Source of the DNA: an uncultured Chloroflexia bacterium
GTDB taxonomy: Bacteria; Chloroflexota; Anaerolineae; CG2-30-64-16
Length of the DNA stretch: 64,000 nucleotides
NCBI GenBank assembly: GCA_963774265.1
Contig: CAVZDU010000001.1
Span: 1,408,001 to 1,472,000 of the forward strand
Direction of reading: 5' to 3'
Below are positions 15,399 through 47,866 of the stretch, one piece after another. The position numbers and the translations under genes are program-made. Within the stretch, counting starts at the first letter, position 1; every line of letters starts with the position of its first letter. The notes under the pieces were generated by a model, which made no database searches, had not been told where the DNA came from, and saw nothing but the letters and a program-made list of their open reading frames with translations.

Positions 15399-15473
<75 letters not shown>

Positions 15474-15555: not shown

Positions 15556-16949
15556 ATGTCTGACCCAATTGTGACCCATCCTGACAGCCGTCGCAGCTTG
15601 CCCAGTGTTGACCGCCTTTTGGCTGTCCCTGCGCTCATGTCCTTTGCCGAGGAACATGGTCACACTGTGACTCTGGAAGCTGTGCGCGCTGCGCTGGTCG
15701 ACGCGCGCAGCCGGCTGGCCGAGGGCGAATCGGCGCCGGATCTCGCAGCATTGGCCGAAGACGCCCTCGCCCGCGCCCGCGACACAGTCACCGGAACACT
15801 CGTCCCAGTTATCAATGCCACCGGTGTCATTGTACACACGAACCTCGGTCGGGCTCCGCTTTCTCACTCGGCATACGCTGCGATGGAGTCAGTGGCTTCC
15901 GGCTACTCCAATTTGGAGTACGATCTCGAAGCTGGCGAACACGGGTCGCGGTACATCCACACCGAAGATTTGCTGCGCAAGCTGACCGGGGCTGAAGCAG
16001 CACTTGTGGTTAACAACAACGCCGGCGCCGTTTTCCTTACGCTTTCTGCGTTGGCGCGGGAGCGCGAAGTGGTCATCTCCCGCGGTCAATTGGTGGAGAT
16101 CGGAGGCGGCTTCCGAATCCCTGATGTCTTGCGCCAGAGTGGAGCTCGTCTCGTCGAAGTGGGGACGACCAACCGGACTCACAAGAGCGATTATGAGGGA
16201 GCCCTTAGCTCAGAGACGGCCCTGCTACTCCGGGTGCACTCTTCGAATTTCAAGCAAATCGGCTTTACCGCCGAGGTTGCTCTGACTGATATGGTGTCCC
16301 TGGCGAGAGCAGCCGGCGTCCTGGTCATCGATGATCTGGGCAGTGGCACCCTGCTGGACACATCGCGCTATGGTTTGGCCCGGGAGCCCATGATTCAAGA
16401 GAGCATCATGGCCGGTGCGGATCTTGTCACCTTCAGCGGCGACAAGCTTCTCGGCGGACCGCAGGCGGGTTTGATCGTGGGGCGGGCCGACCTCGTCGGG
16501 AGGTTGCGTCAACATCCCCTCGCACGCGCCTTACGGGTTGACAAGGCCACGCTCTCCGCACTTCAGGCCACCCTCCTGCATTACTTGCGCGGTGAAGCCG
16601 AGCGTGAGATCCCAGTGTGGCGGATGATCAGTACGCCGCGGGAGATTCTGTCGGCGCGCGCTGCTGACCTGGCTGCTGGTCTGCGCAGTCACGGCCTCGG
16701 CGCCAAGGTTGTATCCGTCGAGGGCATGGTGGGGGAGGATCATTGCCGGGCCAGATGTTGCCGAGCATCGCAGTCGCCGTGGCCACCCCTGTGCCCGACA
16801 TCTTGTCCACCGCGCTGCGGAAAGGCCAGCCTCCGGTTGTTGCGCGCATCGCAGACGACGAGCTGATGCTCGACATGCGAACGGTTCAACCCCACGAGGA
16901 CGAGAGTTTGTTACAGGCAATGTTGCGCGCCTGGAAGAAATCTGCCTAG
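15556..16949 (+). CDS. selA: L-seryl-tRNA(Sec) selenium transferase; frameshift ~16735 in a G-run
   Basis: VINATGVIVHTNLGRAPL, VNNNAGA, SRGQLVEIGGGFRIPD, DLGSG, FSGDKLLGGPQAG (PLP lysine); C-terminus LMLDMRTV in the adjacent frame. Confidence 0.93.
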
Positions 16950-45811: not shown

Positions 45812-47803
45812 TCAGGGCGCCAGCAGACCGTCGATCACCGGACTGAACTGGTCGTAGGGCAGCGCACCCGAGAGGGGTTTGGGATCGCCCACCGGCTGGC
45901 CGCCTACCATTTTGTACAGGAAGAACGCGGGCGTGCCGCGCACGCCCAGCGCCCCGCCGTCCTTCAGATCCTGATCGATGATCGCCTGCGTTTTCGCAGC
46001 GCTGACGCAAGCGTCATACTTGCCGCTGTCAACTCCGATGGCCAGCGCCTGCTTGCGGAACTGATCCGCGGCATCTTGCGCGTCCTGCCATGTGGCTTGA
46101 TTAGCATAGAGCCAATCGTGCATATCCCAAAACAACTTCGCATCCTGTTCACCTGCGCAGATGGCGGCCTTCGCGGCCCCCGGCGCATTCGGATGAAAGT
46201 CAAGCGGGAAATTCCGGAATATCTGAACCGCCTTGCCGGTTTTCACGTACGCTTCATACAGAAGCGGCTCCGTCTGCATAGCATGACGGGCACAGTACGG
46301 TCACTGGAAGTCCGAGTAGTCCACCAACTTGACCGCTGCGTTCGGGTCACCTCGATAGAAGTTCCCCTCGGCGTCACGCCCCACAGGCAAACTCGCCAGC
46401 TCGGTCTTCGAGATGGACGGTGGCGGTGTGGGCGTGGGTGTCGGTGGCACCGAGATGTCCTTGATAGCTTGTTCGAACTGATCCAACGGCAGCGCGCCGG
46501 GGAAGCCCTTGGCATTCTCAACCTGGCCCTGGGCGTCGAGTTTAAGCACCAGGAACGACGGTGCGGATGGCACACCGACTTCCTCCTGGGCAAAGGACAG
46601 CGCCTGCTGCACCTGGTTCTGAACCGTTTCATTGGTCAGGCAATCGCTGAAGGGCTTTTCGTCCAGCCCCAAGCTCTTGGCGAAGCCCTGCATCGCCGCA
46701 TCGTCGCCTTCAGTCCACTCTGCCTGTTTCGTGTAGAGCAGTTCACGGAACTCCCAGAACTTGTCCTGCTGACCGGCGCACAACGCCGCAGCAGCGGCTC
46801 GGGGGGCCGTCACGGGGAATAGCTGAACAGAGTAACGCACCTGTCCCTTGTCAAGGTAGTCCGACTTCAGTTTCGGTTCAACCGACTTCAGGTGCTCGGC
46901 TGATTCCGGGCTCTTGAAGTCTTCAAAAGCCAACACGACTACAGGCGCCGTGTCGGCGCCGAGGTAGTAACCGCCGCCAAAGTCGCGACCGGCTCGCTGA
47001 GGATCGGGCTGCCAGAACTCAACGCCTTGGGGCAGCGGGGTTGGGGTGGGCGGGGGCTTCTGCCCAGCCTTGGCCTTTTCGATTTTGTCCTTGAACTCAT
47101 CGATTCCGACCGCGCCGCTGATGAACCAATCGTTTACGAAGAACGCGGGTGTGCCTTGCACGCCCATCGCCATCCCATCCTGCACGTCCTTCTGGATTCG
47201 TGCGGTCGAGGCAGGGTCCTGGATGCACTTGTCGTAATCGGCCTCTTTGACGCCGAGCGCCAAAGCCTGCTTTTTGAACTGGTCTGCTCCATCGGTCGCC
47301 TCAGACCATCCATCCTGGTTCTTGAAAAGCCAATCGTGTAATCCCCAGAACAACTTCGGGTCCTGCTGACCGGCGCAGTAAGCCGCCAGCGAGGCAGGCA
47401 TAGCATTCTGGTGAAAATCCAGCGGGAAGTGGCGGTAAACGTGTAGGACCTGACCGGTTGCTACGTACGCTTCATCCAGAAGCGGTCCCGTCTGTACAAC
47501 ATGACGGGCACAGTACGGTCACTGAAAGTCCGACCATTCCACCAGCTTCACCGCGGCGTTCGGATTGCCCCGGTAGAAGTTGCCCTCCGCATCGACGCCG
47601 ACCGGCACATCTGCCGCCATAGCCGGGGCGGTCGTGGCGCCGGGCTGCTGCGTGGCTTGCTCGGCCGGCGCAGGTGTGCCAGCCTGAGGCGCCGGAGTGG
47701 GTACTGGCGCTGAGACACCGACACAGCCGGCGACGAACAGCGCCAAAGCCAGCAGCAGCAGGCCGTACACAGCACGTCTGGTGCGAGACTGGGGTTCTCT
47801 CAT
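45812..47803 (-). CDS. Three-domain DsbA/thioredoxin-fold lipoprotein with two in-frame UGA (selenocysteine) codons, ~663 aa
   Basis: ORFs 47519-47827, 46301-47401 and 45812-46279 share one frame and are joined by TGA in SDFQ-U-PYCARH; lipobox VAGC; GGAGG SD; cis-Pro motifs GTPAFF; selA in the window. Confidence 0.88.
46270..46289 (-). promoter_or_regulatory. Candidate SECIS hairpin after the second UGA
   Basis: CCGTC-A-TGC-TAT-GCA-GACGG starting 11 nt 3' of the UGA. Confidence 0.6.
47487..47508 (-). promoter_or_regulatory. Candidate SECIS hairpin after the first UGA
   Basis: CCCGTC-A-TGT-TGT-ACA-GACGGG starting 10 nt 3' of the UGA. Confidence 0.65.
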
Positions 47804-47866
47804 GGAGTCCTCCCTCTGTAAGATCAAACCGCGGCGTGGGGCAGGCTGGCTGCCAGCCTACGCCGG

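Follow-up and report, generated by a model that had tools for sequence, protein, structure and literature searches.

A three-domain DsbA-type lipoprotein gene with two predicted selenocysteine codons, each followed by a SECIS-like element, in an uncultured Chloroflexia bacterium

Thioredoxin-like lipoproteins that carry selenocysteine (Sec, U) in a UxxC active site are already catalogued in bacteria. The curated NCBIfam model NF041057, named 'Rcas_1661 family thioredoxin-like (seleno)lipoprotein' and corresponding to the 'DsbG-like' selenoprotein of Zhang and Gladyshev (COG1651), describes a single domain of 247 positions. In the accessible part of a 2026 review this family is listed as 'DsbG-like protein' with a UxxC motif and one Sec, and most of the 119 selenoprotein families are described there as single-Sec (PMC13188914). 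As far as the available excerpts go, the DsbG-like family is traced to the Sargasso Sea study (PMC1088965) and to PMC1794560. Here we describe a gene on the minus strand (45812..47803) of a 64,000-nucleotide stretch of DNA from an uncultured Chloroflexia bacterium; this whole stretch is called the window below. The predicted product shares with NF041057 the domain type, the position of Sec and the lipoprotein signal, but differs in having 663 residues, three fused domains, two Sec and one redox-dead domain. The first-pass annotation of this DNA had stated that UxxC DsbA-like selenoproteins exist, which the curated model and its entry in the accessible part of the review confirm (PMC13188914), and that the present architecture is unusual. 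The latter claim stands in part: the fused two-Sec form is not listed in that part of the review, but the novelty was overstated, since the domain itself has a curated model. What is new is the combination of three domains in one lipoprotein, with two Sec each accompanied by its own selenocysteine insertion sequence (SECIS), in an active-dead-active order. Few bacterial proteins contain more than one selenocysteine, and this gene would need two independent recoding events for one exported protein. No description of a fused two-Sec DsbA-type protein was found in the main text of the openly accessible literature searched; the literature found there on multi-Sec or two-SECIS proteins concerned only eukaryotic proteins of the SELENOP type.

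Among solved structures, the nearest folds are Wolbachia alpha-DsbA1 (3f4r), Corynebacterium diphtheriae DsbA (4pwo/4pwp) and TsdA (7unn/7uno), and Bacillus subtilis BdbD (3eu3/3eu4), with ScsC also a neighbour. The four named first have the same thioredoxin fold with a helical insert; the solved DsbA-like folds align with the target at TM-scores of 0.6-0.86 and 21-30% identity, with sequence E-values down to 7e-23. Unlike the target they are single-domain CxxC proteins without selenium. Each domain of the target also has a second, invariant pair of cysteines away from the active site (143/193, 342/388 and 549/599); entry 3f4t is titled as a C97A/C146A mutant of alpha-DsbA1. Closer in layout are all-Cys triple-DsbA lipoproteins of Anaerolineae (orthologues P0004, P0006, P0007 and G047), which have the same architecture and PTPTP linkers with Cys in place of Sec, and a distant Anaerolineae family (P0100 and P0113, about 35% identity) of three-domain lipoproteins in which all three CPxC sites are kept. 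The layout also resembles that of eukaryotic protein disulfide isomerase (PDI), a-b-b'-a', in which catalytic thioredoxin-type domains at the ends likewise flank redox-dead modules of the same fold and the b domains serve as spacer or substrate-holding modules. The likeness is one of layout only: the present protein differs from PDI in its DsbA-type domains with helical inserts, an independent duplication, a lipid anchor and Sec.

The gene, its parts and the selenocysteine synthase gene of the window are as follows.

45812..47803, minus strand: whole coding sequence, 663 codons plus the genuine TGA stop at 45812-45814
47801-47803, minus strand: start ATG, with a GGGAGG Shine-Dalgarno sequence at 47809-47814
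47723..47803, minus strand: lipoprotein signal peptide, residues 1-27, with lipobox VAGC and the Cys27 codon at 47723-47725
47615..47722, minus strand: Pro/Ala/Thr/Gln-rich tether, residues 28-63, predicted disordered (predicted local distance difference test, pLDDT, <50 over residues 1-63)
47069..47587, minus strand: domain 1, residues about 73-245, DsbA-type fold, predicted active site U95-P-Y-C98
47519..47521, minus strand: UGA-95, predicted selenocysteine codon of domain 1, from the sequence and the orthologue sites
47468..47508, minus strand: SECIS-like element 1, with hairpin H1 at 47487-47508 and hairpin H2 at 47468-47484 (CGCUUC-UGGAU-GAAGCG)
46448..46978, minus strand: domain 2, residues about 276-452, DsbA-type fold without active-site cysteines (K-S298-P-E-S301)
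46301..46303, minus strand: UGA-501, predicted selenocysteine codon of domain 3, from the sequence and the orthologue sites
46250..46290, minus strand: SECIS-like element 2, with H1 at 46269-46290 and H2 at 46250-46266 (CGCUUC-UGUAU-GAAGCG)
45815..46390, minus strand: domain 3, residues about 472-663, DsbA-type fold, predicted active site U501-P-Y-C504
45750..45768, minus strand: terminator-like hairpin with a T-rich tail, 3' of the genuine stop
15592..16922, plus strand: selA, selenocysteine synthase (506 bits), about 30 kb from the lipoprotein gene

Translation of this segment with TGA read as U gave a single frame of 663 residues in which the third TGA is terminal. Both internal TGAs (codons 95 and 501) lie within SDFQ-U-PYC, at the first position of the UPYC active site. 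Domain 2 reads FEDFKSPES, so that Ser298 (codon 46910-46912) and Ser301 replace both active-site cysteines; it retains the conserved proline P415 and its Cys342/Cys388 pair. The N-terminus, MREPQSRTRRAVYGLLLLALALFVAGC, read by eye, combines a charged start with a hydrophobic core and with a lipobox, VAGC, whose Cys27 is invariant in 13/13 aligned orthologues. Domains 2 and 3 have no signal peptide of their own, and PTPTP linkers join the three domains. When open reading frames (ORFs) were called with translation table 11, the gene was cut into 47519-47827, 46301-47401 and 45812-46279, the middle one of which would begin inside domain 1. Retranslation thus agrees with the first-pass annotation on a single frame with TGAs at 47519-47521 and 46301-46303, hidden as three ORFs, and on a middle domain without both cysteines and an N-terminal lipobox; selA is also found at the distance that it gave.

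Three stretches of the protein match each of the relevant profiles: Pfam PF13462 (Thioredoxin_4) at 280 bits, PF01323 (DSBA) at 111 bits and NF041057, for which the full protein reaches 440 bits (cut-off 190). An AlphaFold model built with 13 sequences contains three confident DsbA-type domains, a disordered segment 1-63 and weak linkers, and Foldseek gave a probability of 1.00 for the match to DsbA-type structures. Judging from the reading frame, these profiles and the comparative data below, we read 45812..47803 as one gene that probably encodes a surface-anchored, 663-residue three-domain lipoprotein with two recoded UGAs, and put the probability of this identity and recoding at about 0.87.

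To see how the gene varies, all 37 available genomes of the same GTDB family were searched. The three-domain frame was present in 23/37, three of the 23 being cut by a contig end, so the architecture does recur in other genomes, where the first-pass annotation had proposed to look for it. Nine genomes have two in-frame TGAs (G000, which is the window's genome, G003, G006, G007, G009, G014, G016, G017 and G045), twelve have one and two have none (G047 and G022). Active sites were inspected in 16 loci; G041, G042, G045, G046, G047, G051 and G052 contribute TGA counts without positions. At the inspected loci all in-frame TGAs fell at one or the other of two active sites, and Cys stood wherever TGA was absent. 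The domain 3 site was U in 15/16 and Cys in one (G022), and the domain 1 site was U in 8 and Cys in 6 of the 14 readable cases (G005 is cut and G002 reads N). The latter genome holds the closest orthologue (L025, 81% identity), in which N stands exactly over the domain-1 active-site codons. Across the orthologues the full-length frame is open and conserved at 51-81% identity, and all-Cys full-length orthologues were called as single database proteins of 663-676 aa (P0004, P0006 and P0007). Since Sec/Cys pairs exist at both sites, as the proposed alignment with Cys homologues brought out, and since the all-Cys forms are single proteins, the three domains would form one polypeptide. The frame is not a product of chance, for related genomes repeat it together with the positions of its TGAs. 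Contigs from four sequencing runs offered weak corroboration, being short pieces, 88-99% alike, none of which spans the gene. Among them, short contigs of relatives from three other studies extend over 47519-47521, and a single one over 46301-46303; no change at these codons was among the differences listed, 16 differences being unlisted. Together with the hairpins and the Sec machinery described below, the comparison indicates that both TGAs are almost certainly selenocysteine codons. The clade offers natural U/U, C/U and C/C versions of one three-domain protein, a ready comparison for the contribution of Sec to extracytoplasmic disulfide chemistry.

Two hairpins follow each Sec codon. H1 begins 11 nt past the UGA and has the stem CCCGUC/GACGGG; H2, whose loop G is invariant, comes directly after it and reads CGCUUC-UG(G/U)AU-GAAGCG. 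We aligned 23 of 27 Sec sites, the four left out belonging to another subfamily or having a different H1. At these 23 sites 95.7% of the pair cells were paired, compared with 33-43% when the partners were slid, and the H2 pairs were formed in 100% of cells. Three H2 pairs are changed on both sides (CAUCUC/GAGAUG in G003 and G006, where the protein changes from PLLYEAY to PSLYEMY), and one H1 pair is compensated in G020; we regard these compensatory changes as real but thin, and the contrasts that follow as the stronger evidence. At seven sites with Cys codons the same structure pairs in 53.6% of cells, mostly owing to G020 and G022, the sequences of which are still Sec-like. In the latter genome the all-Cys gene (L039) retains Sec-hairpin-like sequence past both TGC codons, with one mismatch each in H2, and looks like a recent change from Sec to Cys with a decaying SECIS. 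Synonymous-codon conservation among 12 full-length orthologues placed the 12 best of 601 sliding windows at residues 494-505, that is, at UGA-501. In the 18 codons past the domain-1 site, nucleotide identity was 0.868 among the Sec forms and 0.667 among the Cys forms, while the rest of domain 1 gave 0.663 and 0.71, respectively. No comparable fold was found after the genuine stop (z = +0.34), and no Rfam family matched the hairpins, the sole match being a chance miRNA (E = 0.76). The SECIS also constrains the protein sequence, PLLDEAY/PLLYEAY being the translation of H2. A second subfamily (EISDFQ-U-P[FY]CG) has a single hairpin, CUGGCG-CGGGU-CGCCAG, about 23 nt past the UGA; it is represented by domain 1 of the G007 gene (L031), by L043:228-302 and by L042:4077-4151. 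At one Sec site of G015, H2 is kept behind an H1 of wholly different sequence.

The machinery for reading such codons is present in the window's genome, an assembly of 10 contigs that is 84% complete. A tRNA-Sec gene (selC) scored 73.2 bits, over the cut-off, and was called by ARAGORN as SeC with anticodon tca; selB scored 333 bits and selD 382 bits, so that selB, selC and selD, for which the first-pass annotation had recommended a check, all occur alongside selA. The selD gene (G000:C1:464620-465552, L017) has one in-frame TGA, and the selenophosphate synthetase of this genome is itself likely to be a selenoprotein. TGA terminates 16 of the 37 long non-overlapping ORFs of the window; it is a common stop, and there is therefore no general reassignment.

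Several observations weigh against the reading of one recoded three-domain lipoprotein gene. Taken singly, the three domains score 167.9, 108.3 and 157.2 bits, below the NF041057 cut-off of 190, and the structure model has a predicted TM-score (pTM) of 0.39, which makes the relative placement of the domains unreliable. Either hairpin may be the one that binds SelB: H1 is at the usual, shorter distance from the UGA but has no conserved loop G, and H2 has such a G in a loop placed 40 nt beyond the UGA, further than is typical of bacterial SECIS elements. The compensatory changes come from few lineages, and those in H2 from two related genomes, probably through one event. At five consecutive G near 16730 (16680-16800), selA slips into another frame, in which the C-terminal 67 model positions lie. 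Within the genus, it is the three assemblies in fewest contigs (G000, G001 and G007) that have the split, while the gene is intact in 4/5 more fragmented ones and in pieces in G003; for this reason we read the frameshift as a homopolymer or indel error of the assembly, which is probable but not proven. Finally, the redox direction and the role of domain 2 are matters that we only infer.

Different explanations of the internal TGAs have to be set against these data. They could be true stops or errors, in a pseudogene, through miscalled TGY codons or as the ends of three small genes. Such a view draws on the three ORFs given by table-11 calling, on public databases in which most entries are partial, at 366-374 aa or about 500 aa, and on an assembly with at least one likely indel error (selA). 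We consider it extremely improbable. The same TGAs occur at the same codons in independent assemblies of other species, both of them in 9 genomes, which answers the possibility of base-call errors that the first-pass annotation had left standing; the frame is open and conserved over its full length; the middle ORF begins inside domain 1, and domains 2 and 3 are without signal peptides. The relatives' contigs over both TGAs, with no listed change, speak weakly in the same direction given the unlisted differences. Standard gene callers split such genes, and this splitting hides the three-domain architecture and inflates the counts of 'protein-disulfide isomerase' genes. It is also very improbable that the UGAs are read without selenocysteine, as Trp, Cys or Gly, by reassignment or near-cognate suppression. 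The frame would be open under any code in which TGA is a sense codon, and nothing specific favours this explanation; TGA terminates many long ORFs of the window and the lipoprotein gene itself, the in-frame TGAs are confined to the position of the catalytic Cys, alternate with Cys codons and are tied to conserved hairpins, and the genome keeps tRNA-Sec, selA, selB and selD. A further proposal, made by the first-pass annotation, accepts recoding and holds that selenium supply sets the ratio of full-length to shorter isoforms through termination at UGA-501 or UGA-95. Bacterial Sec insertion does compete with release factor 2, and natural proteins made of domains 1 and 2 (about 440-470 aa), to which a product ending at residue 500 would be similar, occur within this family and also in six further families of the class. 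However, a product ending at residue 94 would, according to the model, amount to signal peptide and disordered tether plus two short strands, with no folded domain. Residue 500 is no domain end either, lying within the strand 1 and helix 1 part of domain 3. The all-Cys orthologues make the full-length form only, and the full-length form is therefore the conserved product. Regulated isoforms are thus an unlikely purpose of the two codons.

How, then, might the protein work? In the recoded lipoprotein that we propose, the conserved two-hairpin element would recruit SelB with Sec-tRNA(Sec), which would let UGA-95 and UGA-501 specify selenocysteine. The protein would end at the third UGA, where this element is missing and the terminator-like hairpin comes next. 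After export and lipid anchoring outside the cytoplasmic membrane, domains 1 and 3 would carry out thiol-disulfide exchange on exported proteins, with the selenols of Sec95 and Sec501 as attacking and leaving groups that form selenenylsulfides with Cys98 and Cys504. The dead domain 2 could be a spacer or a substrate-holding module, like the b domains of PDI. The direction of this exchange can be argued both ways. We lean slightly towards an oxidase or isomerase re-oxidised through a VKOR homologue, because the closest solved sequence relatives, C. diphtheriae DsbA, TsdA and BdbD (the last is called a disulfide bond formation protein in its PDB title), are ones that we take to be oxidases, and because a VKOR homologue is present in the window's genome. 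The other possibility, which we hold to be less probable though worth keeping in view, is a surface reductase or isomerase of the DsbG/ScsC kind that a CcdA/DsbD-type membrane protein would hold in its reduced state and that repairs sulfenylated or mis-paired cysteines or handles copper or oxidant stress. For it speak the curated literature name 'DsbG-like', the ScsC proteins among the structural neighbours, the DsbD_TM/CcdA matches in the same genome and a separate single-domain all-Cys paralogue (36% identity) that could be the housekeeping oxidase; a selenenylsulfide is, moreover, generally less oxidising than a disulfide, a point that we count for a reductant. Against it stand the solved relatives and the VKOR homologue just named, and no partner gene is adjacent, the neighbours being an aminotransferase and a radical-SAM gene. 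As a separate observation, a weak DsbD_TM match with one in-frame TGA (G000:C3:322616-322810, L139) adjoins a stronger DsbD_TM gene; it may be due to chance or be another recoded membrane redox protein. The wider neighbourhood of the lipoprotein gene (the aminotransferase, the radical-SAM gene, an ABC-F protein and an EamA transporter) was considered as a source of redox partners and rejected, since these genes are unrelated. Directly upstream of selA, at 15399-15473 on the plus strand, lies a tRNA-Val(TAC) gene.

The orthologues also allowed us to follow the domains in evolution. Domain 2 has CPxC in 4/16 orthologues (G009, G017, G020 and G022) and no cysteine in the other 12; because CPxC is kept in these four, the inactivation is derived. 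Among 301 genomes sampled across the class, the three-domain form occurred only in the window's family, and six other families had two-domain forms with one TGA, in which domain 2 was CGYC or dead. A scan of genome contigs for Cys-codon patterns, which is blind to Sec forms, found Cys-type relatives in Anaerolineae and Chloroflexota and multi-domain Cys forms in Myxococcota.

The history of the active sites appears to differ from that of the domains that hold them. In a tree of the C-terminal part of the domains, domain 1 (D1) and domain 3 (D3) split at 100/100 and the branching follows the genera. In the tree of the segment made up of active site plus SECIS, the Cys-type D1 segments of G004, G021, G024 and G010, from three genera, group at 100/99. 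Approximately unbiased (AU) tests, with groups chosen after seeing the tree, rejected both the placement of G004 with its genus mates (p = 0.006) and the monophyly of D1 (p = 0.007); the RNA constraint can itself distort a tree of the active-site segment. We describe this pattern as an apparent, unexplained mosaicism and make no claim of recombination. These four Cys-type D1 segments (L026, L029, L030 and L032) share EPxLRxxY, as found in domain 2. Their grouping could reflect either cassette recombination or convergent reversion after loss of the SECIS. Domain 1 of G007, which comes from the second subfamily with its different SECIS, looks like a case of domain shuffling. Recent gene conversion between D1 and D3 within a genome was also considered and is unsupported in the genus of the window, whose active-site segments fall into one clade for D1 and another for D3; G017, with 87% identity between its two segments, remains a candidate for it. 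On a more speculative and rather doubtful level, UGA-plus-SECIS cassettes might be exchangeable, with Sec gained and lost by recombination of a cassette of roughly 180 nt and not by point mutation, and the protein might at the same time be a bacterial, selenium-based counterpart of PDI, a lipid-tethered a-b-a' isomerase or oxidase in which two selenenylsulfide sites act on one substrate held by the dead domain. Beyond the fused form, G015 (L042, G015:C165:43540-46460) and G019 (L043, G019:C254:22603-25549) each have a head-to-tail pair of different two-domain Sec/Cys DsbA lipoprotein genes; gene arrays are therefore found in the family as well as fused domains.

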